In this document: positions 28,893 to 47,821 of the stretch, in pieces | Layout: every line of letters starts with the position of its first letter | Position numbering within the stretch: the first letter of the stretch is position 1 | NCBI GenBank assembly: GCA_021736185.1 | Contig: JAIPGJ010000001.1 | Coordinates: 141-64,140 of the forward strand | DNA: 64,000 nucleotides | Direction of reading: 5' to 3' | Origin: Fidelibacterota bacterium | GTDB taxonomy: Bacteria; Fidelibacterota; UBA8477; JABMPR01 | Translations under genes and position numbers: made by a program | Notes under the pieces: model-generated | What the model saw: the letters and a program-made list of their open reading frames with translations, nothing else | What the model was told of the DNA's origin: nothing | The model's database searches: none

Positions 28893-28903
28893 GAGGCGTC
28901 ATT

Positions 28904-31088: not shown

Positions 31089-31100
31089 GGAGGATTTCTA

Positions 31101-32804: not shown

Positions 32805-33312
32805 CGTTGTTGTACTAGGACTGGGTAACCTGTTACTGCAGGATGAGGGCGTGGGAATCCACGCCCTCCGCATTCTGCAGGAGAATTACCTGTTTACCCC
32901 CCAAATTGAACTCGTTGATGGGGGAACCTCCGGCCTGGATCTTTTACAATTTTTCAGGCCTGAATCAAAGATGATCATGCTGGATGCCATGCTCTTTGAG
33001 CAATCAGCAGGCAGTATCGGTCGCGTGGAAAATGAGGATATTCACGCTCGCCTGAATACCAAAACATCTGTGCATCACTTGGGGTTGAGCGACCTGCTTG
33101 CTATCGCCAAACTGACGGATGTCACTCCCCGGGAAATCGTCCTTTTCGGAGTTCAGCCTGAAAGTATGGAACTGAAAGTAGAGCTCACAAAGACGGTGAA
33201 TGATGCCATTCCAAAGCTTATGGAGTATGTGATTCAGCAGCTAGGGGAGTGGGATGTGAAAACATCCACCTTGAAAAATGAGGGAAAGGGAACCACTCAG
33301 GCAGACTGGTAG
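32791..33312 (+). CDS. hybD: Hydrogenase maturation endopeptidase (HybD/HyaD family)
   Basis: VVVLGLGNLLLQDEGVGIHA...ELVDGGTSGLDLL family signature. Overlaps the hybC stop. Confidence 0.85.
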   Translation: MSFPDVVVLGLGNLLLQDEGVGIHALRILQENYLFTPQIELVDGGTSGLDLLQFFRPESKMIMLDAMLFEQSAGSIGRVENEDIHARLNTKTSVHHLGLSDLLAIAKLTDVTPREIVLFGVQPESMELKVELTKTVNDAIPKLMEYVIQQLGEWDVKTSTLKNEGKGTTQADW

Positions 33313-33352: not shown

Positions 33353-33733
33353 CTATTTCATCACCCCGGCATGGGTTAACATGTAGGCGACGGCATCCTC
33401 AATATCCTTTTCAGAACACTGAGAACACATCCCCATAACAGGGAGCTCGCCATATTTACCGCGGTAGCCATGAACAGTATTGTACACGAGTTGGTCAAAC
33501 CCCTTCTCAGCACTCTCCTGCCAACGGCTATTCTGATCTAAGCGATGTGCACCCTCGATGGCGCCAGTATGACAGAGCATGCAATTATCCTTGTAAATTT
33601 TCTCACCATTAACCAGGTCAGCATGGATATCATGCAAATTAAGTTCGCTTTTTGAGCTACAGCTGAAGATTGCTGCAATCATGAGTAAACTGGATGCTAA
33701 AAAAAGTGATCGATACATGGATTCCCCTCTCAC
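33353..33733 (-). CDS. Monoheme class-I c-type cytochrome
   Basis: Signal peptide. A single CMLCH motif with a downstream Met. Likely start MYRSLFL (33718). Confidence 0.75.
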   Translation of the reverse strand: MRGESMYRSLFLASSLLMIAAIFSCSSKSELNLHDIHADLVNGEKIYKDNCMLCHTGAIEGAHRLDQNSRWQESAEKGFDQLVYNTVHGYRGKYGELPVMGMCSQCSEKDIEDAVAYMLTHAGVMK

Positions 33734-33919
33734 AACTCATAAAGTGCAATGAATGCACTGAAATTTAAAATATCAAGGGTATTTTGAAAGCCATAGTATA
33801 TCAAAAAATGAGGAGCTAATTCATTTAAGCCATTTCAAAATGTTTTATGTTCTTTATCTTAAAATCATGGAGCTTAGAAATCGAATCTGTCTGGATGGTA
33901 GATATGAGTCCCTGTTGGC

Positions 33920-34348
33920 TTGAATTTTGAAGGCATTCCAACGATGAATCTTTTCAAGAATGTCAGTTTGTTTCGTTTGTTGCTGCAGCTTATTGCTATC
34001 CACTCCTTCCTCGTTGGTCTGGGGCTGATCGTCCTTCCCTTTGGAGTTCTTTCCTGGTTTGGATTTACCGTAGACCCATATCGCTTCTTCTCCGCCCAGG
34101 GAGGCGTTTTCCACGTTGTGATGAGCATTGGCTATTTTCTTGCTGCACGAAATCCACGGGGGGAGAAGAATCTCATTATTTTCATCATCCTGGCAAAATG
34201 GATCGCTTTCTTTTTTCTGGCATTTTATTTTCTGTTTTCAGAAATGGTTCCAGTCATAGCCTTTTCCGCTGTGAGTGATGGCTTGATGGGCTTGATCGTC
34301 ATGATGTTTTTCCTCGAATTATACACTCAGGAGGAAATGGATGGCTGA
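33920..34348 (+). CDS. Small hypothetical membrane protein
   Basis: Three or four TM helices. TTG start in the ORF track (ATG at 33944 is an alternative). No motif recognised. Confidence 0.4.
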   Translation: MNFEGIPTMNLFKNVSLFRLLLQLIAIHSFLVGLGLIVLPFGVLSWFGFTVDPYRFFSAQGGVFHVVMSIGYFLAARNPRGEKNLIIFIILAKWIAFFFLAFYFLFSEMVPVIAFSAVSDGLMGLIVMMFFLELYTQEEMDG

Positions 34349-35879
34349 CAAGCCCCTTCCCAGAATAGTTATCACTGGGGCATCAGGGTTTATTGGTAGC
34401 CACTTTGTAGAAACCTACAAAGATGAATTTCAAATATATGCCCTGGCCCGTCGGAGTCAGCAGGAAGTGGGTATCCCCAGACATAAAAACATCAACTGGA
34501 TCCTGGTGGACATAGCCGATCGTGATCAGGTTCAAAGGGTGATGAGTGAGATCGAGACCAGCGGTGGAGCAGATTATTTTATTCACCTCGCAGCTTATTT
34601 TGACTTCTCTAACGAAGCGAATGCTGAGTATGAACGGACCAACGTACTGGGATCAAAAGTCATTTTTGAGGCGGCTTCAGGTCTGGGACTCAAACGATTT
34701 ATTTTTGCAAGTTCACTGGTGGTTTCAGAATTTCCACGACAGGGGGAAAGATTAAACGAACAGAGTCCACTGGACGCCGATTTTCCCTATGCAGTTACCA
34801 AAAAAGCGGGCGAAGCCATGGCCAAAGAGTGGTCTGAATCGTATCCCTGCACGGTGGTTCGCTTTGCAGCAGTGTATAGTGACTGGTGCGAATATGGTCC
34901 CCTCTATAAATTTTTAGACACCTGGTCATCCAGTTCATGGAAATCCAGAATTCTAGGTGGCCAAGGGGAATCATCAGTACCCTATATTCACATTGTCTGT
35001 TTGGTGCGGATGTTAAAAACGATCCTCGACAAAACGGAACAACTGAAACCATTCGATGTGCTCCTTGCCAGTCCCGATGAAAGTACGAGTCATCAGGAAT
35101 TATTCGACTTAAGCACCCGATTTGTATTTGGTGAAAAACGAAGCGCTGTTCACATGCCCGTTTCTCTGGCTCGGCTGGGTGTTTACCTCATGGATTTGAG
35201 CGGAAAACTCATCGGTCATCGTCCCTTCGAACGGCCCTGGATGATGAAATACATAGACGAACGTATGGATGTTGATGCTTCTTATACCAGGGATGAACTG
35301 GATTGGCAGGTGATTCCACGATATCGGCCCGAGCGCAGAATTCTACATGTGATTGAGCATATGAAAACTTTTCCCATAGAGTGGCATTCTAAGAACGTTC
35401 TGGCTCTGTATAAAACACCTGACAGGCCAAATCTGGAAATTTCTGAGGCACTTGCCCATCAGGAGGCTCAGATTCTCAGTGCCCTGCAAGTTCAAATTAT
35501 GAATGTGGATGAACCCTGGCGATATCCATCATATAAGCAAATGGAACCGGAAAAATTGGCCTGGTATCTTAGCATTGTGTATAATTTGCTCAAGGTTGCC
35601 GTACGGACAGGTGACCGATTATCTCTGGCAAATTATGCACGCTTTATCGCTAGCATACGTATCCATGAAGGTTTTAAATTGCCTGAAGTCGTTGATGTTT
35701 ATCAAACCCTCTCTGAGTTGGTCATCCAGCACCTGCTCGAATTTGATGCTGTCAAACATCTTGAGCAACGCATTCGCGACGATATTGACCTGACCATTCA
35801 GATGGCGGTGGATGAAATTGAAGACGCCTATGATAATGCTCATGCTCCAGCGCCATATATTCGATTTCATCAACGCTAG
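34341..35879 (+). CDS. Two-domain protein: N-terminal extended-SDR NAD-dependent epimerase/dehydratase fold plus a roughly 180-aa C-terminal helical domain of unknown function
   Basis: ITGASGFIGSHF Rossmann motif. YAVTK (Yx3K) catalytic pair. The C-terminal domain is shared only with the next gene. Confidence 0.75.
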   Translation: MADKPLPRIVITGASGFIGSHFVETYKDEFQIYALARRSQQEVGIPRHKNINWILVDIADRDQVQRVMSEIETSGGADYFIHLAAYFDFSNEANAEYERTNVLGSKVIFEAASGLGLKRFIFASSLVVSEFPRQGERLNEQSPLDADFPYAVTKKAGEAMAKEWSESYPCTVVRFAAVYSDWCEYGPLYKFLDTWSSSSWKSRILGGQGESSVPYIHIVCLVRMLKTILDKTEQLKPFDVLLASPDESTSHQELFDLSTRFVFGEKRSAVHMPVSLARLGVYLMDLSGKLIGHRPFERPWMMKYIDERMDVDASYTRDELDWQVIPRYRPERRILHVIEHMKTFPIEWHSKNVLALYKTPDRPNLEISEALAHQEAQILSALQVQIMNVDEPWRYPSYKQMEPEKLAWYLSIVYNLLKVAVRTGDRLSLANYARFIASIRIHEGFKLPEVVDVYQTLSELVIQHLLEFDAVKHLEQRIRDDIDLTIQMAVDEIEDAYDNAHAPAPYIRFHQR

Positions 35880-35926
35880 GCCGGTTATTCGCATTTGATT
35901 CTAAGGATCAAAGCTGGATATATAAA

Positions 35927-37444
35927 ATGGGACATCCGCAGACAAATAGAACGGTCCTCATTACCGGTGCCTCGGGATTTGTCGGTCGGCATCTTGTAAA
36001 ATATCTGTGCTCTGAGCATAAGGTCATCGCCTTTGCCCGGCGAACTCAAAAGGAAGTCGGTCTGGAACCACATCCCAATCTTGAGTGGGTTTTGGTAGAT
36101 ATCACTGATTCGAAACAATTGAAAAAAGCCTTTCTTAAGGCGACTACTTCACACCCCATTGATTTTATTTTTCATCTGGCTGCCTATTATGATTTTGGGG
36201 AGCAGATTTATTCAGATACCTATGAGAAAACCAATATTGAGGCAACTTATAACTTATTAGAATTGGCCAGAGCGGCTCATGTCCAACGATTTGTGTTTAC
36301 CAGTTCCATGGTTGCCAGCAATTTCCCCCTACCCGGCGATCTGGTTAATGAGCGCAACCTGCCAGATGCTGAATATCCTTATGCCATTACCAAACGTCAG
36401 GGGGAAAAACTGGTCCAGGAATTCTCCCATTATTTCCCCTGCTCGGTGGTGCGGCTGGCTGCAGTTTGCAGCGATTGGTGTGAGTATGAACCGCTTTATC
36501 ACTTTTTGAAAATATGGTTATCTGATCGATGGGATGCCCGTATTATCCCGGGTAAAGGAATGATGGCCATTCCCTATATCCATGTTTGCTGTATCATTTC
36601 ACTTTTCGTCCAGATCATGGAAAAATCTACCGAATTGAAGGATTATGATGTATTTCTGGCCAGTTCTGATCAACCCGTATCACTGGTTGAGTTATTTAGA
36701 TTTGCCACTCGTCATTATTATGGTGAGGAGCGACACCCTGTTTTTATCCCCGTTTTCCTGGCCAGGCTAGGTGTGTTTTTCCGCAATATCAGGGGCAAAC
36801 TGATGGGGCAGCCTCCGTTTGAAAAGTTATGGATGCTGGACTATACGGATAAAGCATTTCCTACTGATTCATCTTATACCAGAGCAACGCTCGATTGGCA
36901 ACCGAAAGCGCGGCACCAAATATCAAGACGCCTCCTTCATCTTATTGAAAATTTGAAAGCCAGACCAGAGGAATGGCATCGCAAAAACATTGATCGATTG
37001 CACAGATTTTCCAGAAGTCGACCTTCCCTCGCGCTAGCCGAAGAAATGATCAAGTTGCATGAGACCTTGGTGGAGACTATCACTTCCCACATTATGCAGC
37101 CTGAAAACGCAGAGCAGTTGAAGTTTTATCATTCCATGGAGGCTGATGAGCTCAAGTGGTATATAAGCGTTGTTTTTAATAATCTACTAACCTCTGTACG
37201 TCATGGGGACAGATCGATCATGATCGTCTTTGCCCACGATCTTGCCAACCGGCGCATGCAGGAGGATGTGAGCCTGGAAGAATTATGTGAAGTACTATAT
37301 ATCACTCGTGATGTCATCACAGAAAGTTTGTACAACAATCCCAAGCTCCACAATATGAAACTGCTTGTCCATGATTACATCACCCTGGCCATTCAACTGG
37401 CCATCGATGAAATCAAAGATATTTATGAAAATATCCCCCTCTAG
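35927..37444 (+). CDS. Paralog of 34341..35879 (SDR epimerase fold plus the same C-terminal domain)
   Basis: ITGASGFVGRHLV, YAITK, and conserved CSDWCEYxPLY and L.WY.S.V.N.L..VR.GDR motifs. Co-linear with the upstream gene over the full length. Confidence 0.75.
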   Translation: MGHPQTNRTVLITGASGFVGRHLVKYLCSEHKVIAFARRTQKEVGLEPHPNLEWVLVDITDSKQLKKAFLKATTSHPIDFIFHLAAYYDFGEQIYSDTYEKTNIEATYNLLELARAAHVQRFVFTSSMVASNFPLPGDLVNERNLPDAEYPYAITKRQGEKLVQEFSHYFPCSVVRLAAVCSDWCEYEPLYHFLKIWLSDRWDARIIPGKGMMAIPYIHVCCIISLFVQIMEKSTELKDYDVFLASSDQPVSLVELFRFATRHYYGEERHPVFIPVFLARLGVFFRNIRGKLMGQPPFEKLWMLDYTDKAFPTDSSYTRATLDWQPKARHQISRRLLHLIENLKARPEEWHRKNIDRLHRFSRSRPSLALAEEMIKLHETLVETITSHIMQPENAEQLKFYHSMEADELKWYISVVFNNLLTSVRHGDRSIMIVFAHDLANRRMQEDVSLEELCEVLYITRDVITESLYNNPKLHNMKLLVHDYITLAIQLAIDEIKDIYENIPL

Positions 37445-37451
37445 GAAAACG

Positions 37452-37982
37452 CTAAGCAGTCAGCATCGAGAGCTCGTTTTGACAGGTCTGGCAAAACATA
37501 TCTGACTTTTGATCCATTTCTTCTACATAGGTGGTTGAGACCATGACGCAGCCAGGCTTTAGGCAGTGTTTCAGTCCAAACGTGTGACCGAGCTCATGGA
37601 CGATACACTTGATGATACGATCCGAAAATATTTGTGGATCACTGGCGAGACCATATCGTCTATTCTCTAAACGATGCCCTGAGACCAGGGCCACGGATCC
37701 ACCCAGGTAGGCCTGTCCAAATATGTAACTGAGTACGGGTATAAATAAATCCAAGTCAGTGACGCCGACGATTTTATCATCTTCACCTGCCAAAGGGAGC
37801 AACTTTTGTATGATTTCATTGGCATTATACTGAGATCTCACCGGATTGAAGAAGGGGGTCAAGTCCAGATGTTGACCGCTCAATCTGGTTTCCATCTTGA
37901 AGCGATTGCTGAGCACAGAAAGCATTGTTTCCATCGTAGAAACGCTGGAAAACTGTAGAGGAATGATCCTGATCAGGGGCAT
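37452..37982 (-). CDS. Archaemetzincin-like zinc metallopeptidase (M54)
   Basis: HELGHTFGLKHCLKPGCVM-x16-CQTC reproduces the archaemetzincin signature HExxHxxGx3Cx4CxMx17CxxC. Confidence 0.7.
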   Translation of the reverse strand: MPLIRIIPLQFSSVSTMETMLSVLSNRFKMETRLSGQHLDLTPFFNPVRSQYNANEIIQKLLPLAGEDDKIVGVTDLDLFIPVLSYIFGQAYLGGSVALVSGHRLENRRYGLASDPQIFSDRIIKCIVHELGHTFGLKHCLKPGCVMVSTTYVEEMDQKSDMFCQTCQNELSMLTA

Positions 37983-38002
37983 GAATCTAAGCCTGATCTA
38001 GA

Positions 38003-39343
38003 CTATTTTGGTTTCTCTATTTTATACTTTTTAATTTTACTGTAAAGGGTTACCCGGTCAACCCCCAGAGCTTTGGCCGCGCGTGAGATATTCCAATCAT
38101 ATTTAGTAAGTATTGCCTCAATGTGATGTTGTTCCATATCCTGGATGGACTCCCAAGTGGGTTTGGACATCTGGTGTTCGAAGGGGAGATCTTTGAGTTG
38201 CACCGTATCACCGGTTCCGATGACAATGGCTCGCTCAATGAGATTTTCAAGTTCACGTACGTTCCCAGGGAAAGCATAATTGTTCAAGGCTTTGGCTGCT
38301 CGTTTACCGATGTAGCGCGTTCCCTTGTTCATCTGGTCAGCATAGAGTTTAACAAAGTGTTCGGAGAGGAGTTTAATATCCTCTGGTCGTTCCCGTAGTG
38401 GCGGTATTTCAATTGAGAATACATTTAATCTATAATACAAATCCTCTCGAAACTCTCCAGCTTTGACCATGGTCTGCAAGTCCCGGTTGGTAGCGCAGAT
38501 CACTCGAAAGTCAGATTGGAGTTCACGGTTCCCGCCAACCCGGGTAAAGCGTTTTGATTCCAATACGCGCAATAATTCTATTTGCATCTTCATGGAGATA
38601 GTAGAAATCTCGTCCAGAAAAAGAGTTGCCCCATCAGCCATTTCAAATTTGCCTTTTCGCGCATATTGAGCACCGGTAAAAGCACCTCGTTCATGACCGA
38701 ACAGCTCGCTTTCCATGAGACTTTCAGCAATGGCGCCGCAATGCACAGTTACCATGGGAAAGAAACGTCTCGGCGAATTCATATGAATAGCTTTGGCGAT
38801 GAGTTCTTTACCCGTACCACTTTCGCCATGAATGATCACTGTTGAATCAGTTTCAGCCACAATTCTGACCTGCTCGAGGACTTTGAGAATACCCTCGCTT
38901 TGACCGATGATGTATTCAACATTGACCAGGCTTTTAATCCGATCCTGAAGCGAGAGGTTTTCACGGCTCAATTGAATGGATTTGCTCGCATTCCGTATGA
39001 TATGTGTGACTGCATCTGGATCGAATGGTTTGCATACATAATCGTAGGCTCCATCTTTCAAAGCTTGTACCGCAGAATCCACGGAAGCAAAAGCGGTCAT
39101 AATAATGACGATGGTATCTTCATTGATGGCTTTAATTCGCCGGTTGAGCTCAAGTCCGTCCATTCCAGGGAGTTTGATATCGATCAGGACGATGTGAAAG
39201 TGGAATGCTTCAATCTTTTTCAGGGCAACTTTGGCATCTTCAGCTGTGTCGACATCATAACCATCCTCGAGAAACCAATTGGATAGTGAATCCCTGACAG
39301 ATAGCTCGTCATCGACTACCAATATGGAAAGATTATTGTCCAT
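38003..39343 (-). CDS. Sigma54-dependent response regulator (NtrC family)
   Basis: Receiver domain (ILVVDDE...D). AAA+ core with GESGTGKE Walker A and the GAFTGA sigma54-contact motif (ERGAFTGAQ). C-terminal Fis-type HTH. ATG 39343 follows GGGAGG. Confidence 0.9.
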   Translation of the reverse strand: MDNNLSILVVDDELSVRDSLSNWFLEDGYDVDTAEDAKVALKKIEAFHFHIVLIDIKLPGMDGLELNRRIKAINEDTIVIIMTAFASVDSAVQALKDGAYDYVCKPFDPDAVTHIIRNASKSIQLSRENLSLQDRIKSLVNVEYIIGQSEGILKVLEQVRIVAETDSTVIIHGESGTGKELIAKAIHMNSPRRFFPMVTVHCGAIAESLMESELFGHERGAFTGAQYARKGKFEMADGATLFLDEISTISMKMQIELLRVLESKRFTRVGGNRELQSDFRVICATNRDLQTMVKAGEFREDLYYRLNVFSIEIPPLRERPEDIKLLSEHFVKLYADQMNKGTRYIGKRAAKALNNYAFPGNVRELENLIERAIVIGTGDTVQLKDLPFEHQMSKPTWESIQDMEQHHIEAILTKYDWNISRAAKALGVDRVTLYSKIKKYKIEKPK

Positions 39344-41009
39344 CCTCAAGCCTCCCAACACTAAGTTTAAATATAAATTTCATTGAGGTTCCAACTCCTG
39401 GAGTTGAATCAACAGCCACCCTGGCCTGATGTTGTTCCAAAATCCCATACGTGACTGCCAGTCCAAGGCCAATTCCAGACATTTCTTTTTTGCTGGAGAA
39501 AAAGGGCTCAAAAATATGCTCCAAATCAGATTCTGGAATACCAATGCCATTGTCTTTAATTTCAATAATAACATGCTCCATATCCGGATTAGAGCTGCGG
39601 TAGGTCACCAGACCCTCCGAACCTGGACGAACAGCTTCCAGGGCATTGGTAAGTGTGGCCAGACAGGCCTGAATGATTTGGTTGCCATTGGCCATGATTT
39701 TATCTCTGCTGGCTGAAAAATCAGTAACGAGTCTCACATCAGAGATTTGGAAACTATGCTGAATAAGCTTTTCAGTTTCCATAAGCACCTCATTAAGGTG
39801 AATTTCCTCAAATTTTTCGCTACCATCCCTGGAAAAATTTAGCAGACCTTTTACAATATTACCACAGCGGGTAGTTTCAGACTGAATCATATCAAGATGC
39901 TTTAAGACAGCGGTTTTCTTCTCATCCGTGAAATCACTGGTCTGAAGTATTCTGGAAACCAGCTTGGCATAGGTCAGAACTCCTGCCAAGGGGTTATTAA
40001 TTTCATGTGCTACCGAGGACGAAAGGCGACCCAGCGAGGCGAGTCTTTCGATTTGATATATTTCATTCTGAGTTCTGGCGATATCCTCCGATTTGCTCCG
40101 GACCTTACTTTCCAGCTCACTGGACCATTCATGTAACTCACGATTACTTTCATTAATGGATTCCAGCATGGTATTCAGTGCCAGACCCACCTGGTGAATA
40201 TCAATCAGGTCATTGGGTTGTATATCCACTCGAACCGATAAATTACCGGCAGAAACGGCCCGGCTGGCTTCCACAATCCGTTGGAGGGGCTGATTGATGC
40301 GGCGCTGGACAAAATACAACAAGGTGCCGACCAGGAGGATCAGAAAGAGCACCACAATGCTGAAGTATTCATACAAAACTTTGTTCAATGCCGAGTCCAC
40401 CTCAGTCAAGGGCAATTCAATTTCCATAAATCCCAGTACTTCGGAGGGGGAAGATGTTTGATGACAGGAAATCGAACCGCAGGAGGGGGCAGACATGATG
40501 GGTGAGAGGACGATCATATTCCGGCCGTCCTTAAGCTCCACATTGTATACGCAAGTAGCCGGCATGCCCCATTGAGCTGGATCTACTTCCGCATGGCAAT
40601 GGGAGCAGGGGAGCAGGGGCTCTTCGCCCCGGGCCTTACTTGAGGCATCCTGAGTGTGATGTTTGATCTCACCGCGATTATTATATATCCTAATCGCGCT
40701 GATACCAGGCACCTCCAACACCTCGTTGATGGCGCTGGCAAGTTCAGCATGATCCTCACTGATCATACTGCTGCGGATCGACTTATCAATGACCGTAGCC
40801 ATTCGTTTTCCAAAGCGGGTAGTGACACTTTCCAGATAATTGTTTGACATTGAAAAGATGAGCCAGGCTAAAAATGCGAAGAGAATCACAGACATGCTTA
40901 CCAGCAGGCTAAGGAGATGTCCATATAATGATTTTGGTTGAAACTTTTTTTTCATAAATGAGATGTGGTGTTTTTGCATTGGTGGAACCTGATTGAGCTT
41001 AGAGTTCAT
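39333..41009 (-). CDS. Sensor histidine kinase with a periplasmic heme-c-binding (CxxCH) sensor domain
   Basis: TM1, a roughly 170-aa periplasmic domain containing CSHCH plus CGSISCH, TM2, HAMP, HisKA (SSSVAHEINNPLAGV), HATPase_c (DNGIGIPE...GIGLGL). Start chosen at MNSKLNQ (GAGG-preceded ATG 41009). The ORF track extends to 41102. Confidence 0.85.
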   Translation of the reverse strand: MNSKLNQVPPMQKHHISFMKKKFQPKSLYGHLLSLLVSMSVILFAFLAWLIFSMSNNYLESVTTRFGKRMATVIDKSIRSSMISEDHAELASAINEVLEVPGISAIRIYNNRGEIKHHTQDASSKARGEEPLLPCSHCHAEVDPAQWGMPATCVYNVELKDGRNMIVLSPIMSAPSCGSISCHQTSSPSEVLGFMEIELPLTEVDSALNKVLYEYFSIVVLFLILLVGTLLYFVQRRINQPLQRIVEASRAVSAGNLSVRVDIQPNDLIDIHQVGLALNTMLESINESNRELHEWSSELESKVRSKSEDIARTQNEIYQIERLASLGRLSSSVAHEINNPLAGVLTYAKLVSRILQTSDFTDEKKTAVLKHLDMIQSETTRCGNIVKGLLNFSRDGSEKFEEIHLNEVLMETEKLIQHSFQISDVRLVTDFSASRDKIMANGNQIIQACLATLTNALEAVRPGSEGLVTYRSSNPDMEHVIIEIKDNGIGIPESDLEHIFEPFFSSKKEMSGIGLGLAVTYGILEQHQARVAVDSTPGVGTSMKFIFKLSVGRLEDGQ

Positions 41010-41076
41010 GTCCCCCTCAATAAAAAAGTGACTTCGTAAATAATCGCGTGAGTTAATTATGCATAATACATGCCAG

Positions 41077-41784
41077 TCAACAGACATAAGCCAGGCCATC
41101 ACTAATGCCTAGCAGGTATTTTGAGAATGCGCTTTTATTCAATTTGGATCGCCGAAGGAGTGTGTGCGGCGTAGGTTCATCTGACCTATGGAGGAGTTTG
41201 CTGAACCTATCCAGATCTTCCTCAGCCAGTTTTAGGTACTCATCTCGCCTGAGATATTCAAGTTCAAGTGAGTTTTCATCCACTTCCAATTCTACAAACC
41301 AGAGTTCTTCCTCAGGGCTCATATATAAATAAGTGTCCTGAATTTGATTTGAGCTGAACAGGGGATTGGACTGAAGAATTTGTCCAGATACGGGTGTGCG
41401 CAGGTAGATAATATCATCTTCCAATTGCAGCCAACTGAAACATTGTTTTTGAAGGAGTGCGGTGTTGACCTTGGGTGTAATTATTTTTTGAACTGAGGAA
41501 AAATATTGCCACAAAAATGCATCGATTCCCAGGCGAATTTTACCTTTCCCCGTTCTCTTGATCCAGAAATGCCGATGAGTGAATTGGAGCCCCGGTGTAA
41601 ACTGAATCACTGATACTTCAGGGTTTTTAATATCGATGGTGGTGGTTTCAGCTTTTATTCCAGGTCGTCGACACCCCCGCATCATTTCCCTGTGAAAATC
41701 ACATAAGTCGCAATTCTGTTTGAGGGGACAAAGTTGATATTCAACGGATTCGGCATCCATCCATATACATTTTTGCGATTCCAT
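41077..41784 (-). CDS. Soluble GcvH-fold protein with an N-terminal Cys-rich region
   Basis: HFWIKRTGKGKIRLGIDAF...IITPKV...IYLRTPVSGQILQSN aligns with the H-protein core (HEW..VGITD(F/Y)A..LP.VG..ES.K..IYAPVSGEV..N..L). No Lys at the lipoylation position. N-terminal CIW...C..C..C..C cluster. No TM helix. Confidence 0.6.
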   Translation of the reverse strand: MESQKCIWMDAESVEYQLCPLKQNCDLCDFHREMMRGCRRPGIKAETTTIDIKNPEVSVIQFTPGLQFTHRHFWIKRTGKGKIRLGIDAFLWQYFSSVQKIITPKVNTALLQKQCFSWLQLEDDIIYLRTPVSGQILQSNPLFSSNQIQDTYLYMSPEEELWFVELEVDENSLELEYLRRDEYLKLAEEDLDRFSKLLHRSDEPTPHTLLRRSKLNKSAFSKYLLGISDGLAYVC

Positions 41785-41873
41785 CTTTGATCCACCTATC
41801 TATCATTCAGCAGGGTAGGGAGGGGTAGTCCTAAAAGGACCCCCCTCCAAAAAGTCCCACTGACTCACTATTG

Positions 41874-42566
41874 TCATTTAGCTGCATCAATGAATTCAGA
41901 CTGGAATTCTTCCCATATTTCAGGTGAGAGTGATTCCAGCACCTTATCTTCGATTTCGCCACCTTCCTGGAGCAGGATAGGTTGAACGTTCAGATCATAT
42001 TTTCTTTCGGCAAAAGCGAGAACATCACGTAATCGGGCTTTTTCCTGCTGAATCCATCCTTGAGCTTTTTCACCTAGAATGAGCATGGTTTTTTCTGCAT
42101 CCCAGCGCTTGGGAGCCATATCGAACAGCCAATTCTCTGTGAAATCATTATGGGTACGCTTGCTGAATTTATGCAGGGCTTTTTTATTGATCGATGTTAA
42201 GGTTCCACTTACTGGCGAATAGATTTTCAGGCTTTTCCCATCGCCCATCAAGGTAGCTAGATGATCCCCGCGTTGAATCTCTCCACCACTATATTTATGA
42301 AGTTGTATAGAAACGGGACCTGTTAGAGCGGCTAAAAAATCGTCAATTCCCACTTGAACCTGACCCGCTGATTTGAGATAAGCCCAGGTATGGGTTTTAT
42401 CAAAGAAAACACCGCGGGGCAAGCGGACTTTGGCCAGTGAAAATAGGGGACCTTCAACTTCCTTCAAATAGGAGTAAAAGGGGATGAAAACGAGGAAGAA
42501 ACTTATGATGAGTAAGTATTCAACTCCTTTTGTTGAAAAAATATCAGTATAATAAAAACTAGGCAT
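41874..42566 (-). CDS. Membrane-tethered GcvH-fold protein (paralog B)
   Basis: One N-terminal TM helix, then THTWAYLKSAGQVQVGIDDFLAALTGPVSIQL...GDGKSLKIYSPVSGTLTSINKKAL...NWLFDMAPKRWD, a close match to the GcvH consensus, plus a C-terminal LLQEGGEI extension. Confidence 0.6.
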   Translation of the reverse strand: MPSFYYTDIFSTKGVEYLLIISFFLVFIPFYSYLKEVEGPLFSLAKVRLPRGVFFDKTHTWAYLKSAGQVQVGIDDFLAALTGPVSIQLHKYSGGEIQRGDHLATLMGDGKSLKIYSPVSGTLTSINKKALHKFSKRTHNDFTENWLFDMAPKRWDAEKTMLILGEKAQGWIQQEKARLRDVLAFAERKYDLNVQPILLQEGGEIEDKVLESLSPEIWEEFQSEFIDAAK

Positions 42567-43812
42567 GATTTGTCACCTCATAGTGTTTTGCTTTTTTTTC
42601 TGTCATGGATTCCATGGTTCTTAACACAGGCATACGATGCAGTACCCAACGAAAGATCCAGATTTGTACAAAGAGAATTGATACCGTCACGACAATTTCC
42701 ATCCAGGTGGGCACATATCGGGGAATCTGATCCCAACGATAAGCGATTACGGACACATTCATGCGATTGAGAACAATTCCAATCAGCGCCATGAGTGAGG
42801 CAAGTTTAATAATGAAGGGTGTTCCTAATCTGACTCCTCTGACGAAGAGCAGCATGGGGATGAGGACAAAACCAATCATCTCGAGCATATACCAGGCGCC
42901 CATAGGTGACATGAGATATCCCAGTGTATGATTGTGAACCATATCCACGATTTTAAGGAAGAAGTATACGAACATAGTGACAGCGCATACCTTGGACAAT
43001 CCTCGAATCATAACATTATTACGTTCATCACTATGCTCATCCATTTGATAGGCAAAGACCTTCTGTAGGATACTTCCCTGGAAAATCACCATGCTCAGTC
43101 CAGCAAAAATACTGGAAATGAAAAATAGTGTCGGGATAAACTCAGAATACCACAGAGGATGAATTTTGCCCTTGGCCATGAGGAAAAGCGCTCCAAGTCC
43201 TGACTGGTGTAAGGTGGAAAGGGTGATGCCAAAAATAACGGCACCAATGGTCAGGCGTTTCAGGTTTCGTCGCGCACGCTCCGAACCCAACCATTCCGCT
43301 ATCGTCGGAGAAAATTCGATGAGTTGGGCGACGATATAAAGAATGAAGTGCCAGGCCACCAGGAATAGAATACTGCTGGTCCCAAATGAGTTACCAATAA
43401 CGGGATTGATAATATTCCAGGGTTTTCCCAGATCTAGAATCAAGGCAATTGCATAAAAGGTGTAGGCGAGAAAGCCATTGAGAACGGTCACTCGAACCAA
43501 GGGCTTATATTTTTCCAAACCCAGGATATAAACCATGAAGGTTAATACATAGGCTCCACCGGCAAAGGCCACACCGGTAACCACGTTAAACCCTTTCCAT
43601 AATCCCCAGGGCATGGTTTGAGTCACATTTGAAACTGCTTCTAGACCATAAATAAAGCGTATCACAATGATCACGGCAGCAACCATCACCGTTGGCACTG
43701 AAATCATATTGAACACGGTCCAGGGATTGCCACGTGGTTTTAATTCAGATAGCAAAAATTTCCAAGTGCTGGCAGGACGTTTGTAGCTTTCAGATAGAAT
43801 GGTTTCACTCAT
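42559..43812 (-). CDS. NrfD/PsrC-family polytopic membrane subunit (paralog of hybB)
   Basis: About 10 TM helices. Overlaps the upstream FeS gene by 8 nt. ATG 43812 follows AGGAAGGAG. Confidence 0.8.
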   Translation of the reverse strand: MSETILSESYKRPASTWKFLLSELKPRGNPWTVFNMISVPTVMVAAVIIVIRFIYGLEAVSNVTQTMPWGLWKGFNVVTGVAFAGGAYVLTFMVYILGLEKYKPLVRVTVLNGFLAYTFYAIALILDLGKPWNIINPVIGNSFGTSSILFLVAWHFILYIVAQLIEFSPTIAEWLGSERARRNLKRLTIGAVIFGITLSTLHQSGLGALFLMAKGKIHPLWYSEFIPTLFFISSIFAGLSMVIFQGSILQKVFAYQMDEHSDERNNVMIRGLSKVCAVTMFVYFFLKIVDMVHNHTLGYLMSPMGAWYMLEMIGFVLIPMLLFVRGVRLGTPFIIKLASLMALIGIVLNRMNVSVIAYRWDQIPRYVPTWMEIVVTVSILFVQIWIFRWVLHRMPVLRTMESMTEKKAKHYEVTNHA

Positions 43813-44674
43813 GGTCATCTCCTTCCTTGTCTTTCTCTTTGGTTGCTTCTCTCAAACCCAGGAGCAATGCTGGCCAGAGAACAAAGACAGAAGGAACACT
43901 GTAGAGAAATCCCTTCGTTAATTCGGGGTAAGGCTTGGTTTCAAGATTCGTTTTAAAGCCAAGCTCTTCAAAGGGGACAGGGGATATGTTTAACCAGGAT
44001 GTCCCACCGGCTTCATATTCACCATAGACGTGGTCTACGTATGAATCAGGATCTTCAATGATTCTTTTATGGGCTTCGGCTAATATTTCGCTGCGTTTCC
44101 CAAAAATGAGTGCTTCAGCTGGACAGTTTTCAACGCAGGCTGGGACCTCACCTTTCGTTAATCTGTCAAAACACATCTGGCACTTGCCAATTTTTGGATT
44201 GTTGTCATCGAACTCGAATTGTGGGATATCGAATGGACAGGAGACCATGCAATAGCGACATCCCATACATTTCCCTTCTTCCCAGGTTACAGGTCCTTCT
44301 TTGTGTTTCTTCATGGCCTGAGTGAGACATGCAGATGCACAGGCCGGTTGGGCACAATGCATACATTGTTGTTTGGTATATACTTCACCGACACTGGTCT
44401 CAACGGCGTTGATCACCGAGTATTGATCAGGTTTTAATTTTCGTTTTATGCTACTATCAGGATAGTCATCGCTGGAAGGTTCCGGTAAATTATTAGCAGC
44501 AGCACAGGCAAATTCACACTCCTGGCAGCCTTCACACAAGGTAATGTCATGCAGAATAGCATAAAATTCTTCTGGATCAGAATCCGACTTAGTTTTTCCT
44601 AACGCAGAGACACCAGTGAGGCTGGCGCCCGCTACCCCGAGAGTCTTTAGAAATTCTCGTCTATCAATTGTCAT
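43805..44674 (-). CDS. Tat-exported 4x[4Fe-4S] ferredoxin subunit (NrfC/HybA/DsrO-like) with C-terminal TM anchor
   Basis: RREFLK Tat motif. Four Cys clusters: CEGCQECEFAC, CMHCAQPACASAC, CMGCRYCMVSCP, CQMC...CVENCP. C-terminal hydrophobic helix. Confidence 0.85.
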   Translation of the reverse strand: MTIDRREFLKTLGVAGASLTGVSALGKTKSDSDPEEFYAILHDITLCEGCQECEFACAAANNLPEPSSDDYPDSSIKRKLKPDQYSVINAVETSVGEVYTKQQCMHCAQPACASACLTQAMKKHKEGPVTWEEGKCMGCRYCMVSCPFDIPQFEFDDNNPKIGKCQMCFDRLTKGEVPACVENCPAEALIFGKRSEILAEAHKRIIEDPDSYVDHVYGEYEAGGTSWLNISPVPFEELGFKTNLETKPYPELTKGFLYSVPSVFVLWPALLLGLREATKEKDKEGDDHE

Positions 44675-44725
44675 AATATTTTATCCTTACAGGGTCTAGA
44701 GTAATATTTGTAGGTAGATGGATCA

Positions 44726-45436
44726 TCAGGAATGATGCAATAATTCCTGATTTGATGGATCCAGGATGAGCTTCTGAAATGAACCCCACAAACCTTTGCC
44801 TGCGAATCCCAGAGCGCCCTCGGCAATATCTCCGCCTTCTTGCAGAAGTACCACACCGCGTTCAGCATGGGGAGGCGCAAAAGAATGGGCAAAGAAATCA
44901 CGGATACGGGCGATTTCAGCTTTGAGCCAGCTGGCCGTACTTTGACCCAGATAAAGTCTGCGTGTCTCATGCTCCCAGTTATCGGGTTCCATTTCCAGAA
45001 GCCACCCGAAGGTATAGGGGTCACGATGGACCATGCGCAGGTTTTGAAGTGCTTCAGTATTAATCGTTTTAATCTTGCCGGATACTGGAGCCGTGATGAC
45101 GAGTTTGTTCCCCTTGTGGATGATGTCAAAAAGAGGATCCCCCTGTTTAACCCTGGTGTTGCCTTCAGGTACATGTATTTCTGAAAGAATACCCGTGAGT
45201 CCCTGAATGAATGCGTCAACACCTACCTTGGCGCGACCATTGGTTTCAAGATGCGCCCAGCTGTGGGTAGGACTGAAATATATGCCTGCCGGTACAGCCA
45301 TATTTTCCATCTTGAATTGATACGATTCACGTTTTACGAGTGGGGAGCTGCTGATCGCTTGATTACGTCGCATACTTTGATACCACGTAACACTGATAGC
45401 GATTGCTACAAATAAAATAACGAGTGAGATGACCAT
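44726..45436 (-). CDS. Membrane-tethered GcvH-fold protein (paralog A), first gene of the operon
   Basis: N-terminal TM helix followed by RR (C-in topology), then THSWAHLETNGRAKVGVDAFIQGLTGILSEI...ITAPVSGKIKTINTEAL...GWLLEMEPDNWE, the GcvH core. Strong AGGAGG ribosome-binding site. Confidence 0.6.
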   Translation of the reverse strand: MVISLVILFVAIAISVTWYQSMRRNQAISSSPLVKRESYQFKMENMAVPAGIYFSPTHSWAHLETNGRAKVGVDAFIQGLTGILSEIHVPEGNTRVKQGDPLFDIIHKGNKLVITAPVSGKIKTINTEALQNLRMVHRDPYTFGWLLEMEPDNWEHETRRLYLGQSTASWLKAEIARIRDFFAHSFAPPHAERGVVLLQEGGDIAEGALGFAGKGLWGSFQKLILDPSNQELLHHS

Positions 45437-45468
45437 AATGAACCTCCTTTTTAGTTCACCCCTATTAG

Positions 45469-45484
45469 TTCAAGATAGGTGCCA
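45469..45484 (-). promoter_or_regulatory. Candidate sigma54 promoter (minus strand: TGGCAC-N5-TTGAA) about 45 nt upstream of the GcvH-like/NrfCD operon
   Basis: The reverse complement of 45469-45484 reads CTGGCACctatcTTGAAC. The -24 GG is present. The -12 reads GA instead of GC. Geometry relative to the RBS and ATG is appropriate, and an NtrC-family activator is encoded at the 3' end of the operon. Confidence 0.3.
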
Positions 45485-46069
45485 GAGATTTTTACATGAC
45501 ATAAACATAAAAGTAATATATAGATAGGACGAAATGATGACTGGGAACGCACGAGGCGAAAGTGTGGAGATATTCACCACCCCCATGAATTCAACACTAT
45601 AGGTGGGCGTCACACCCATTTAATGTTAGTGCATAGAAATACAACAGGTGTAAGGAATGCTTACAGTTTCAATCTTCAGGCGAAAAGTGAAATAAATATT
45701 TGAATATAAAAGACTTATGAAGAAATATCATGAAACTGATGGTAATAAAATGCCACAAAATTTTGTTATTCCAATGGCCAAGCTCAGAAGTGAATATATT
45801 TTTAACACCTCATCTTTTTGGAGGTAAAAATTCATGATGTGCAGAAGCTATCCCTAATAGAATAATGATGTAAAACGAATAAAAACAATATCATGAAACT
45901 TGCCATTTTATGAGATGATATGTTGAATATGTAAACACACCAATAATTTGGTCATTTTGATAGCTTACTTCATTTCTCAGTGATATTAATGACTTCTCTC
46001 ATTTTGTTTGAGAGTTTAATTCCATCCAAGTTTAGATTCTTGGACTTAAAATTGTTAGGAGAGTTCATC

Positions 46070-46819
46070 GTGCGACAGTTTATCATCATACTTGTCACTG
46101 CCTCAATCTTGTTGGGCTGGGGAAAAACTGGTCATAGAGTTATCGGTAAAATTGCAGAAGAGAATTTGTCACCTGAAGCAAAAGAGAAAATCACTCAATT
46201 ATTTGGTCATAGTGATCTTGCCAGCCTCGCAAATTGGGCAGATGATATAAAATCTGATCCAGCCTGGCGCCATGCAAACGACTGGCATTATTGCACCATA
46301 CTGGAAGGTAAAGAATATGAAGGTCCGGATGCTGGGGGAAGAGCAGTCCAGAAAGTTACAGAATTTACTGATCTGTTGAACAAGGGAACCCTCTCAGAAA
46401 AAGATCAGAAAGATGTCCTTAGATTTATTATTCATATTGTAGGTGACCTTCATCAGCCCTTGCATGTTGGTAATGGAACTGACCGGGGCGGGAATGATGT
46501 GAAAGTGACCTGGTTTCGGGAAGAAACCAATCTGCACAGAGTTTGGGATTCGCAGCTGATTGACCATTTGCAATTTAGTTATACTGAATATGCACAGCAG
46601 ATTCAACTTGGCATAACCCCTGCTGAAAAGGACACGCTTACGAATCCCACACTTCTCAGCTTTGTATACGCCTCTAAAGCAGTTCATCCCCAGGTGTATG
46701 ACATAGGAGATGGAAAATTATCCTACGAATACATCTACAAAAATCGGGATCTCCTGGATGATCGTCTATTGAAGGCTGGATATCACCTTGCCGCTATTTT
46801 GAACGATATTTTTAAGTAA
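46070..46819 (+). CDS. Secreted S1/P1-family nuclease
   Basis: WGKTGHRVIGKIAEENL, HIVGDLHQPLHV, GGND and LHRVWD motifs of S1/P1 nucleases. GTG 46070 follows AGGAG. The ORF track starts at 45980. Confidence 0.8.
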   Translation: MRQFIIILVTASILLGWGKTGHRVIGKIAEENLSPEAKEKITQLFGHSDLASLANWADDIKSDPAWRHANDWHYCTILEGKEYEGPDAGGRAVQKVTEFTDLLNKGTLSEKDQKDVLRFIIHIVGDLHQPLHVGNGTDRGGNDVKVTWFREETNLHRVWDSQLIDHLQFSYTEYAQQIQLGITPAEKDTLTNPTLLSFVYASKAVHPQVYDIGDGKLSYEYIYKNRDLLDDRLLKAGYHLAAILNDIFK

Positions 46820-47821
46820 ATGAAGCATTATCGCTGTAATTTCCTGATATTGATATTCCTTTGCATGGCTTGCGGGCCAGTGAAGGCAGCTTCCCCCAAT
46901 TCATCAACTTTGGACAAAAAGTTCAGGCTGGTTCTGGAAGGAAAGGCTGAGCAGGATTTCACTGTGGGCCTGGCTCTGGGGGCCGGCGCTGCAAAAGGGT
47001 TCGCTCATATCGGGGTTCTAGAGGCACTGGAACAGGCCGGGATTCGAATTGATATGATTGCCGGTAGCAGCATGGGCGCCATCATCGGCGGTGGCTATGC
47101 CGCAGGTCTGAGCGTTGATTCATTATCAAAGGTTGCACTTACATCGAATTGGTTGGATGTATTGAATCTCCTGGATCCGGTTTTTCCCGCCCGTGGATTT
47201 ATTGATGGACAGAAAATTCATAACTTTTTAGACGAGCTATACGGTCATAAAAACATCGAGGATTTAGCAATCCCATTCTCTGCAACCACGGTAGATATAC
47301 TCAATGGGGAGCTATTTGTACTCAATGAGGGAAATTTAGCCAACGCTGCCCGCGCTAGCTCATCCATCCCCATCATTTTTAACCCGCTTGCCAACAAGGA
47401 TCGCTTCCTGGTTGATGGAGGTATGATTGACCCCGTGCCCATTGATGTGGTTCGATCCATGGGGGCGGACTATGTCATTGCGGTGAATGTGCTTGCCATG
47501 CCTGAAGGAAAATTGGATAAGGCACCTTTCAATTACATGAACGCCAATGACCTAACGAATAGTCGCTCGACATGGCATTTTCCCAGGGGCAATGAAGCCT
47601 GGTATACTGCAGGGAAACCCAATATGGTTGAAATAGCTCATGAGACAGTCATTCTCTCCATGGCGTTAATTGCGGCCAATCAAATTGAGCTGGCCAACCC
47701 CAATATGATTATCAGTATAAACACTGGACTATCTGCCTGGAATTTTCTGGAAGCCGAAATTGCCATTCAAAAAGGCTATGAAGAAACCATCCTGAATTTA
47801 AAGCTGGCAAAACAAAAGTGA
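46820..47821 (+). CDS. Patatin-like phospholipase
   Basis: GLALGAGAAKGFAHIGVL (oxyanion GGxR/K) and GSSMGA (GxSxG nucleophile) motifs. DGG catalytic Asp. Signal peptide. Confidence 0.85.
   Translation: MKHYRCNFLILIFLCMACGPVKAASPNSSTLDKKFRLVLEGKAEQDFTVGLALGAGAAKGFAHIGVLEALEQAGIRIDMIAGSSMGAIIGGGYAAGLSVDSLSKVALTSNWLDVLNLLDPVFPARGFIDGQKIHNFLDELYGHKNIEDLAIPFSATTVDILNGELFVLNEGNLANAARASSSIPIIFNPLANKDRFLVDGGMIDPVPIDVVRSMGADYVIAVNVLAMPEGKLDKAPFNYMNANDLTNSRSTWHFPRGNEAWYTAGKPNMVEIAHETVILSMALIAANQIELANPNMIISINTGLSAWNFLEAEIAIQKGYEETILNLKLAKQK

Follow-up and report, generated by a model that had tools for sequence, protein, structure and literature searches.

GcvH-fold proteins encoded with an NrfCD-type module, a heme-type sensor kinase, and a sigma-54 activator in a Marinimicrobia contig and in related loci of many phyla

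The operon and its regulatory genes

The window analyzed here, a stretch of 64,000 nt from a Fidelibacterota bacterium (positions 141 to 64,140 of contig JAIPGJ010000001.1, assembly GCA_021736185.1), contains an operon in which three proteins with the fold of the glycine cleavage H protein, GcvH, are encoded together with an exported iron-sulfur (FeS) ferredoxin and an NrfD-family membrane subunit, and are followed by a sensor kinase, a sigma-54-dependent activator, and an archaemetzincin-family protease (Table 1). We refer to the three GcvH-fold proteins as G1, G2, and G3. An earlier note, made from the DNA letters without database searches, had described this arrangement and suggested that it might be a quinone-linked redox or lipoyl/carrier system; its account of the genes has stood up well and its carrier proposal has not. 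The operon is one Marinimicrobia copy of a wider gene cluster, and its G1 and G3 match proteins of an NCBI Marinimicrobia metagenome-assembled genome at 100% identity.

All five open reading frames (ORFs) of the operon were recovered on the minus strand where the note had placed them, in the order G1-FeS-NrfD-G2-G3, and they are indeed tightly packed: gaps of 51 nt (G1/FeS) and 89 nt (G2/G3) flank overlaps of 14 nt (FeS/NrfD) and 8 nt (NrfD/G2). The ferredoxin carries an RREFLK motif, 16 cysteines, a Pfam match to the twin-arginine translocation (Tat) signal, and a Fer4_11 domain (74 bits), and the adjacent polytopic protein matches NrfD (50 bits), so that an exported four-cluster ferredoxin stands beside an NrfD-family subunit, as in NrfCD-type modules. 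The closest NCBIfam families are HmcB for the ferredoxin (330.8 bits; cutoff, 420) and HmcC for its neighbor (360.8 bits; cutoff, 550), followed by HybA (229 bits; cutoff, 263) and HybB (231 bits; cutoff, 450), and in every case the score falls below the equivalog cutoff. The nearest solved chain to the ferredoxin is FdnH (1kqf_B; E value, 5e-30), and the NrfD protein has no sequence relative in the PDB and no close solved homolog. The pair had been called paralogs of the hybA and hybB genes located elsewhere in the window in a complete HybO-HybA-HybB-HybC-HybD operon with its own ferredoxin and NrfD subunit. Homology was upheld, at 34% identity for the ferredoxin and 28% for the NrfD protein, but Hmc models, not Hyb models, lie nearest to the pair.

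The heme-type kinase and the sigma-54 activator follow the operon as claimed. The kinase contains CSHCH and CGSISCH, a CxxCH and a Cx4CH motif about 43 residues apart, in a periplasmic domain of about 180 residues that has no relative in Pfam or the PDB; both motifs are present in 55 of the 66 kinases of related loci, including those at loci that lack FeS and NrfD. We predict on this basis that the protein is a c-type heme sensor to which heme would be attached covalently. The next gene encodes the REC-AAA+-HTH activator (Pfam Sigma54_activat, 231 bits, with Response_reg and HTH_8 domains) adjoining the HisKA/HATPase kinase. The archaemetzincin passes the NCBIfam NF033823 cutoff (153.3 bits; cutoff, 145), and its HExxHxxGxxH zinc site is intact as HELGHTFGLKH.

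Conservation of both position and sequence points to two sigma-54-type -24/-12 promoters, P1 ahead of G1 and P2 ahead of the kinase. P1 is among only 4 sites with at most one mismatch in the window (128 kb counting both strands), and the pattern TGGCA[CT]-N5-[CT]TTGAA is position invariant in nine Marinimicrobia orthologous regions upstream of G1; P1-like sites precede G1 also in loci of Chlorobi, Calditrichia, delta-proteobacteria, and Deferrimicrobiaceae. Every Marinimicrobia locus long enough to include the region has a P2 equivalent 55 to 71 nt ahead of the kinase, as do loci of Ignavibacteriota and Bacteroidota, and in a soil metagenome locus (L083) sigma-54-type sites occur on both divergent arms. 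From the position of P2, the real start of the kinase would lie at or after 41009. In the footprint of the nine regions upstream of G1, the -24 and -12 elements and the ribosome-binding site are invariant, and two boxes with imperfect dyad symmetry stand out about 95 and 165 nt upstream (CTGTTGTATTTCTATGCAC and GTGGTGAATATCTCCACAC in the window), which may bind the activator; searching for palindromes in general lacked the specificity to locate activator sites. Upstream of each promoter lies a copy of the 10-mer TGAATATCTC (minus strand), for P1 at 45540-45560 within a conserved box and for P2 at 41251-41270 within the G3 coding region, which is weak evidence. Scans for sigma-70 promoters and terminators gave background levels only, and an Rfam scan of 36000-47000 returned no match.

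Table 1. Genes and promoter elements of the cluster and other features of the window referred to in the text
Feature	Coordinates	Strand	Description
G1	44726-45436	minus	236 aa; N-terminal membrane helix, predicted cytoplasmic GcvH-fold domain, C-terminal extension with near-invariant DGG
FeS ferredoxin	43805-44674	minus	289 aa; Tat-exported, C-tail-anchored 4x[4Fe-4S] protein, HmcB/HybA/FdnH-like
NrfD-family integral membrane subunit	42559-43818	minus	419 aa; 10 predicted helices, N and C termini predicted cytoplasmic, HmcC/HybB-like
G2	41874-42566	minus	230 aa; second tethered GcvH-fold protein with C-terminal extension; start overlaps NrfD stop by 8 nt
G3	41077-41784	minus	235 aa; soluble GcvH-fold protein, N-terminal C-x12-C-x5-C-x2-C motif
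Sensor histidine kinase	39333-41009 (listed ORF, 39333-41102)	minus	Periplasmic CxxCH and Cx4CH domain between two membrane helices, then HAMP, HisKA, HATPase
Sigma-54-dependent response regulator	38003-39361	minus	REC, AAA+, HTH_8
Archaemetzincin-family zinc metalloprotease	37452-37982	minus	176 aa; final gene of kinase-regulator unit
P1, sigma-54-type promoter, TGGCACCTATCTTGA	45470-45484	minus	About 34 nt upstream of G1 start codon
P2, sigma-54-type promoter, TGGCATGTATTATGC	41061-41075	minus	Right after G3 stop, ahead of kinase
Two conserved boxes, TG.TGA-N6-.CA.CAC-like	45540-45650	minus	Upstream of P1; candidate activator-binding sites
hyb operon	27747-33312	plus	HybO-HybA-HybB-HybC-HybD; HybA-HybB at 28904-31088
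Pyruvate dehydrogenase E1	16054-18738	plus	
Pyruvate dehydrogenase E2	18838-20118	plus	Genuine lipoyl domain
Multiheme cytochrome c	254-1354	plus	6 CxxCH motifs
Multiheme cytochrome c	1564-2571	plus	12 CxxCH motifs
Multiheme cytochrome c	2923-3720	minus	7 CxxCH motifs

GcvH fold, absent lipoyl lysine, and predicted membrane side

G1, G2, and G3 have a true H-protein fold, on which Pfam, structure models, and Foldseek concur. All three score above the GCV_H gathering score of 22.2 bits (55.1, 39.0, and 27.4 bits, respectively), G2 is 34% identical to G1, and the HxW, VG[IV]D, PVSG..N, and GW motifs are retained throughout. The AlphaFold models of G1 (mean predicted local distance difference test [pLDDT] score, 69) and G3 (mean pLDDT, 76; predicted template modeling score, 0.75) are confident in the central domain (block-mean pLDDT mostly 70 to 95), and their significant Foldseek matches in the PDB are glycine cleavage H proteins only, including 1onl, 3ab9, 3klr, and 3hgb, with best E values of 5e-13 for G1 (root mean square deviation, ~1.8 Å; template modeling [TM] score, ~0.8) and 8e-8 for G3 and with TM scores of 0.73 to 0.86 to solved H proteins. 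The note had allowed that these might instead be biotin-lipoyl domains of efflux membrane-fusion proteins. Foldseek placed BCCP-type domains at E values of >0.01, against 1e-13 for H proteins, and HlyD, Biotin_lipoyl, and NQRA_N matches in Pfam were all below threshold, as were weak matches to RnfC_N. None of the three reaches the TIGR00527 GcvH equivalog cutoff of 115.85 (G1, 52.7 bits; G2, 28.7 bits; G3, 24.1 bits), and sources that label such proteins call them either "glycine cleavage system H protein" or "hypothetical."

The absence of the canonical lipoylated lysine was also correctly called. When the column was set by alignment to E. coli GcvH, the position 8 residues before the conserved Pro of PVSG was found to be Gly in G1, Gly in G2, and Asp in G3, and among 188 distinct family members from 82 loci only 9 have Lys there. 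The hairpin is usually basic, and its most lysine-rich column holds 62 Lys and 56 Arg, no column exceeding 33% Lys; no modifiable residue, Lys or Cys, is conserved across the family, and Cys is entirely missing from G1 and G2. Lysines do occur near the site, at -9 and -6 relative to the Pro in G1 and at -7 and -4 in G2, and none of these positions is conserved; noncanonical lipoylation at them was considered and rejected since they vary even within the Marinimicrobia. The organism evidently lipoylates proteins, given the lipoyl domain of its pyruvate dehydrogenase E2, which makes the missing lysine of G1 to G3 the more telling. The next ORF after E2, 20134-21549 (plus strand), which was outside the scanned ORFs, is a likely E3. 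We conclude that G1 to G3 are more likely adaptors or regulators than carriers.

Behind the GcvH core, relatives carry some 80 further residues, an extension with the pattern W..E..R.RDF, a near-invariant DGG (in 146 to 148 of ~152 sequences), and W..F...FL. What precedes the core differs. G1 and G2 have a bare membrane helix, and G3 has a four-cysteine module whose motif, C[VI]WMxAGxxx[YF][KQ]LCx5CxxC, is kept across phyla; in Marinimicrobia, C19, C25, and C28 are invariant, as is a C-terminal Cys, and C6 is 90% conserved, and elsewhere neither the C-terminal nor the core Cys residues are conserved. Bacteroidota orthologs of about 560 residues consist of a signal peptide, a periplasmic domain of about 330 residues with no sequence relative in the PDB, a helix, the basic stretch KRKSR, and the GcvH domain. 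In other relatives a receiver (REC) domain is fused to GcvH, either in a soluble protein or behind a membrane helix, and tandem duplications are also seen. One protein of the representative library, P0091 (1,391 residues), joins three Lys-less GcvH-like domains to a GlcD-like FAD oxidase and a CCG-type (HdrD/GlcF-like) Fe-S module, a possible sign that some proteins in the wider family work with Hdr-like redox enzymes. The variability of the N-terminal modules, together with the receiver fusions, indicates that the GcvH domain behaves as a signaling output or adaptor and not as a metabolic carrier.

The prediction that the tethered GcvH domains are cytoplasmic was supported by several features. 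G1 begins with two residues, a hydrophobic helix, and then RR/KK, which predicts an N-out, C-in orientation; the Bacteroidota orthologs place their periplasmic domain before the helix and KRKSR after it; and helix-REC-GcvH relatives are informative because receiver domains are necessarily cytoplasmic. No signal peptide is present in G3. In the ferredoxin, a Tat signal and, at the C terminus, a helix with basic residues behind it lead us to place the protein in the periplasm, tail anchored like HybA and FdnH, and the NrfD protein, with even-numbered loops rich in Lys and Arg, is predicted to have both termini inside, in the topology of HybB. NrfD proteins, to our knowledge, carry no cofactor able to pass electrons across the membrane. 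The redox centers of the ferredoxin and the GcvH domains thus appear to lie on opposite sides of a cofactor-free membrane subunit.

A second ferredoxin subtype complicates this scheme. About 24 relatives, of about 250 residues, have no signal peptide and end in a helix followed by WWITNRR (loci L001/L024, L021-L026, L029-L034, L038-L044, L048-L050, L057, and L064), with the NrfD topology unchanged. An inverted NrfD at these loci was considered and discarded, the Lys/Arg loop bias being equal in both subtypes. The subtype resembles a "hitchhiker" of the FdnH kind, yet no Tat-bearing partner is encoded nearby.

Distribution of the cluster and comparison with known systems

A scan restricted to one genome per species, with the window proteins used to label ORFs, returned the cluster in 79 species-level genomes from more than 10 phyla. 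The hosts comprise Marinimicrobia, Bacteroidota, Ignavibacteriota, Chlorobiaceae, NC10, Chromatiales, and Calditrichota (including a Caldithrix abyssi metagenome-assembled genome [MAG]), several delta-proteobacterial lineages, Deferrimicrobiaceae, Gemmatimonadota, Eisenbacteria, Krumholzibacteriia, and others. For lineages with cultured strains the cluster was seen in MAGs only, assigned to Caldithrix abyssi, Draconibacterium, Prolixibacteraceae, and Ignavibacterium. Gene counts per locus are lower bounds, 23 of the loci being shorter than 12 kb. FeS and NrfD are present in 66 of the 79, the co-occurrence that the note had proposed looking for, and recurrence on this scale means that the arrangement is no chance juxtaposition; 63 loci have at least two G proteins, 62 a heme-type kinase, and 54 a sigma-54 regulator, next to which an archaemetzincin is found in 48 (across phyla, and also in L083). 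A profile search over 1.84 billion representative proteins assigned 752 clusters at 50% identity to the G1 family at an E value of ≤1e-30 and 3,752 at ≤1e-10; the 9,084 matches at ≤1e-3 take in canonical GcvH.

The gene content outside the core varies. Seven loci, and with them two soil metagenome loci from outside the scan (L083 and L084), have G1, Cys-rich G3, kinase, regulator, and archaemetzincin without FeS and NrfD, which suggests that G1 and G3 travel with the signaling genes and that FeS/NrfD is a frequent insert between them. G2 behaves differently: in ~20 of 25 loci with the Tat-type ferredoxin, the tethered protein right after NrfD best matches G2, and its gene often overlaps the NrfD stop codon. 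At three loci (L065, L068, and L076) a helix-REC-GcvH protein replaces G1 ahead of FeS-NrfD-G2, with G3 also present in L068 and L076. The unit at L056 comprises a heme kinase, REC-GcvH, helix-REC-GcvH, a five-heme cytochrome c, a Tat ferredoxin, and NrfD and has no DNA-binding regulator. In a Desulfobaccales MAG (L067, 59-7898), a sigma-54 regulator, an archaemetzincin, and four tandem GcvH-fold genes, three of them Cys rich, are followed by a Pyr_redox_2 (NDH-2/SQR-like) enzyme and a DUF1641 protein in place of FeS/NrfD. At L002 (2924-9519) and L003, two small genes of unknown function and two multiheme cytochrome c/cytochrome b (Ni_hydr_CYTB) pairs come after the gene of a tethered GcvH-fold protein (P0050 in L002). 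The last two arrangements suggest that the GcvH module accompanies several types of quinone-linked enzyme.

As the note had stated, the operon encodes no catalytic subunit, and none recurs in related loci: all-against-all clustering of ORFs over 82 loci found no other recurrent family across phyla, and, besides the hyb genes, no molybdopterin or other catalytic oxidoreductase was present among the scanned window ORFs. What does accompany the cluster is multiheme cytochrome c, with 3 to 13 CxxCH motifs, in or beside it in 29 of ~82 loci. NC10 loci have a triheme c7-like gene between G1 and the ferredoxin (8629-9111 in L021), two close Marinimicrobia relatives have 8- to 10-heme genes directly upstream of G1, 13-heme proteins occur at clusters of Fidelibacterota and of a Marinimicrobia single-cell genome, and in L034 (9340-10914) a cytochrome c7 domain is fused to the C terminus of NrfD itself. 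Just upstream of G1 the NC10 loci also have a small Cys-rich ORF (7755-7985 in L021; MRCPFFEE...C.C.C...CPLF). In the window, multiheme cytochromes are confined to the three genes at 254-3720, which have cytochrome c3/c7/MtrC-like Pfam matches; the only other ORFs with CxxCH are a small one at 33353-33736 and the kinase. These cytochromes may serve the partnerless FeS/NrfD pair in the periplasm or else form an electron conduit. They are adjoined by a 771-residue protein without a Pfam match (3886-6201, minus strand). Multiheme cytochromes c are likely the missing partner of FeS/NrfD, encoded in cis in about one-third of clusters and in trans here, and the most economical reading of FeS/NrfD is an Hmc/Nhc-like cytochrome c:menaquinone oxidoreductase that may run either way and works with a cytochrome encoded elsewhere in the genome.

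The Hmc/Nhc/Tmc-type complexes of Desulfovibrio are accordingly the closest comparison for the pair, sharing the periplasmic four-cluster ferredoxin on an NrfD-type subunit and, in many related clusters, the multiheme cytochrome c. The operon differs in having no 16-heme HmcA and no HmcD, HmcE, or HmcF, in presenting GcvH-fold proteins on the cytoplasmic side where Hmc has an HdrD-like subunit, and in being hard-wired to a heme kinase, a sigma-54 regulator, and an archaemetzincin. The HybA-HybB pair of hydrogenase 2 is likewise homologous, with the same predicted NrfD topology and a Tat-exported, tail-anchored ferredoxin, but the G1-G3 operon has no hydrogenase subunits.

A regulatory parallel is provided by Geobacter sulfurreducens, in which the sigma-54 regulator BccR induces the inner membrane quinone oxidoreductase CbcBA at low redox potential; the cbcBA operon (GSU0597-GSU0593) begins with two hypothetical genes and ends with the quinone oxidoreductase (bioRxiv 10.1101/2021.04.15.440034). 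Both systems place a sigma-54 activator beside a sigma-54-promoted operon of hypothetical proteins and a quinone-linked membrane module, and in L002 the G1 relative P0050 stands directly upstream of the cytochrome pairs, an order that resembles that of cbcBA. On the other hand, the window module is FeS/NrfD and not cytochrome b/c, CbcBA-type genes are absent from the window operon, and the L002 genes neighbor NarL-type regulators instead of a sigma-54 regulator. GSU0597 is a "hypothetical protein" in publications, and a possible link between it and G1 is a lead drawn from the description of the operon and the gene order in L002.

GcvH and its lipoate-binding relatives (LbpA, and GcvH-L of Streptococcus pyogenes, PDB 5a35) share the fold of the G proteins (TM scores of 0.7 to 0.86, including 5a35), whereas the G proteins lack a conserved modifiable Lys, add a tether or Cys4 module and the DGG extension, and are not associated with GcvT/P, lipoate ligase, sirtuin, or Hdr genes: the clusters show no recurrent gene for lipoate ligase, sirtuin, an Hdr-like protein, sulfur transfer, GcvT, or GcvP, and the scanned window ORFs, all but a few of the total, include neither GcvT/GcvP nor Hdr-like or ligase genes. 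The system therefore lacks both the conserved Lys and the recurrent Hdr-like and ligase genes that characterize the sHdr-LbpA system of sulfur oxidation. The barrel-sandwich-hybrid domains of NqrA and RnfC also have a lipoyl/biotinyl-type beta fold without a prosthetic group and sit at the cytoplasmic periphery of membrane redox complexes, but the G proteins are full H-protein folds, free standing or tethered, and not parts of a large catalytic subunit. The Psp system (PspF, PspA, and PspB/C) offers an analogy only: it too combines a sigma-54 activator with small tethered and soluble proteins within its own regulon, but there is no kinship in sequence or fold, and the histidine kinase and receiver domain found here have no counterpart in Psp.

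The note had supposed the arrangement to be undescribed. The searchable literature yielded no paper on GcvH-fold proteins with NrfCD or Hmc, on receiver-GcvH regulators, on a link between archaemetzincin and sigma-54, or on a heme-kinase/sigma-54 system of this kind, and the published sigma-54 regulon studies that we examined do not mention the cluster genes. As far as this literature shows, the cluster is undescribed, and it joins known kinds of system, a sigma-54 two-component regulon and an NrfCD-type module, to a new class of accessory protein.

Proposed function of the cluster

We favor, with a little more confidence than doubt, the view that the cluster is a sigma-54 regulon responsive to redox state, by which an HmcBC-like cytochrome c/menaquinone module is induced and to which GcvH-fold regulatory or adaptor proteins belong. 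In this scheme, the kinase would sense the redox state of the periplasm or of the quinone pool through two c-type hemes at its conserved CxxCH and Cx4CH motifs and, to judge by domain architecture and adjacency, would phosphorylate the sigma-54 activator, which would in turn fire P1 (G1-FeS-NrfD-G2-G3) and P2 (kinase-activator-archaemetzincin). The tail-anchored periplasmic ferredoxin would dock on the 10-helix NrfD subunit, and electrons would be exchanged, in either direction, between periplasmic multiheme cytochromes c and menaquinone. The three unlipoylated GcvH-fold proteins would act on the cytoplasmic side as protein-binding adaptors or regulators and not as cofactor carriers, G1 and G3 as a signaling core in which the Cys4 motif of G3 may be an Fe-S or metal sensor and G2, translationally coupled to NrfD, probably as its cytoplasmic subunit. 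The archaemetzincin may act on one of these proteins. In sister systems, transcriptional control would be supplemented or replaced by phosphorylation of the receiver that sits within G1.

Several observations weigh against this scheme. No cytochrome is encoded in or beside the window operon, the nearest lying about 38 kb away, and the loci with signal-less ferredoxins must either have a Tat-exported partner that escaped notice or be arranged differently. G1 and G3 are retained at 7 or more loci that lack NrfCD, and a role as NrfD subunits therefore cannot cover all G proteins. The targets proposed for these proteins (NrfD, kinase, and activator) are assigned purely from gene order and domain fusions. 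The C-terminal extension has low confidence in the G1 model, the scheme explains neither the role of the archaemetzincin nor the near-invariant DGG, and the -12 element of P1 reads TTGA where TTGC is canonical.

The loci without NrfCD lend themselves to a different explanation, in which all three G proteins are auxiliary to the two-component pathway, as feedback anti-activators or as kinase cosensors in the manner of PspA/B/C on PspF, and FeS/NrfD is a coregulated cargo with no physical link to them. G1 and G3 themselves lie under sigma-54 promoters, consistent with a feedback loop; the modules at their N termini and those of relatives (Cys4 motif, periplasmic domain, and REC) look sensor-like; and the cargo beside the core varies from NrfCD to cytochrome b/c pairs to a Pyr_redox_2 enzyme. 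This explanation accounts poorly for G2, whose start overlaps the stop codon of NrfD and which comes after NrfD in most loci of the Tat type, and for units of the L056 type, where no DNA-binding regulator is encoded and the membrane complex is the only evident target of the GcvH domains; we rate it as rather unlikely, though a substantial competitor. The want of a catalytic subunit could also be explained if FeS/NrfD were the input of the kinase, equilibrating its periplasmic hemes with the menaquinone pool, and both the conserved heme motifs and the tight, widespread linkage of FeS/NrfD to this type of kinase agree with such a role. Its position downstream of a sigma-54 promoter, however, marks FeS/NrfD as an output and not as a constitutive input, kinases at loci without FeS/NrfD retain the heme motifs, and the large cytochromes (8 to 13 hemes) in many clusters suggest bulk electron flow, and we consider this role improbable.

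The carrier system suggested by the earlier note, spelled out here as G proteins that are swinging arms and move reducing equivalents or sulfur between NrfCD and cytoplasmic metabolism on a lipoyl, persulfide, or other covalent group, appears to us less probable still. It has in its favor the intact H-protein fold, an organism that makes lipoyl proteins, the conserved Cys residues of G3 with the invariant C-terminal Cys of the Marinimicrobia, the domain fusion in P0091, and the precedent of sulfur oxidizers, in which lipoate-binding GcvH-like proteins work with Hdr-like enzymes. The hairpin nevertheless offers no conserved Lys or Cys, the C-terminal and core Cys residues of G3 are not kept outside the Marinimicrobia, and G1 and G2 have none; the ferredoxin and the GcvH domains are predicted to face opposite sides of the membrane with no redox cofactor in NrfD to bridge them; the clusters show no recurrent ligase, Hdr-like, or sulfur transfer genes; for G1 and G3, linkage to NrfCD is less constant than that to the kinase, activator, and archaemetzincin; and receiver domain fusions, unexpected in a metabolic carrier, speak for a signaling or adaptor role.

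A more specific form of the adaptor hypothesis, which we offer tentatively and hold to be less probable than the redox-responsive regulon itself, is that the GcvH fold with its DGG extension constitutes an unrecognized cytoplasmic signal output or adaptor domain that docks on quinone oxidoreductases, of the NrfD type and possibly of the cytochrome b type, where redox signals from the diheme kinase would lead it to gate or tune them, with the archaemetzincin as a dedicated processing or turnover protease. If so, response regulators would gain a new output domain, and the protease would provide the first functional context for its family in bacteria; bacterial archaemetzincins would also acquire their first conserved set of genomic partners. 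The automatic annotation of a large family as glycine cleavage system H protein would be wrong; its members come from Marinimicrobia, Bacteroidota, Ignavibacteriota, Chlorobi, NC10, Calditrichota, Gammaproteobacteria, and several delta-proteobacterial lineages. Were the favored regulon correct, a redox-sensing system would control the connection between cytochromes and the quinone pool in anaerobes and microaerophiles, and a testable regulatory handle on respiratory flexibility would become available in uncultured groups that are abundant in oxygen minimum zones; Saanich Inlet, for one, harbors these Marinimicrobia. The Geobacter model of BccR and CbcBA, with redox potential deciding which quinone oxidoreductase is used, may thereby extend to many phyla.

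Other genes in the window deserve brief mention. Between the hyb operon and the archaemetzincin, two adjacent paralogs of about 510 residues (34341-37444, plus strand) combine an N-terminal SDR/epimerase-like domain with a long uncharacterized C-terminal half. A 7TMR-DISM/GGDEF diguanylate cyclase (50873-52771, plus strand), a TldD/PmbA metallopeptidase pair (56249-59059, plus strand), and paralogous lipid kinases of the YegS/DAGK type (55083-55973, minus strand, and 59060-59986, plus strand) have no evident link to the operon. The window also encodes a secreted-type protein of 1,679 residues with M6 peptidase, cleaved-adhesin, and Ig-like domains (8289-13328, plus strand) and a large protein with a Por_Secre_tail (type IX secretion) sorting domain (23321-25792).

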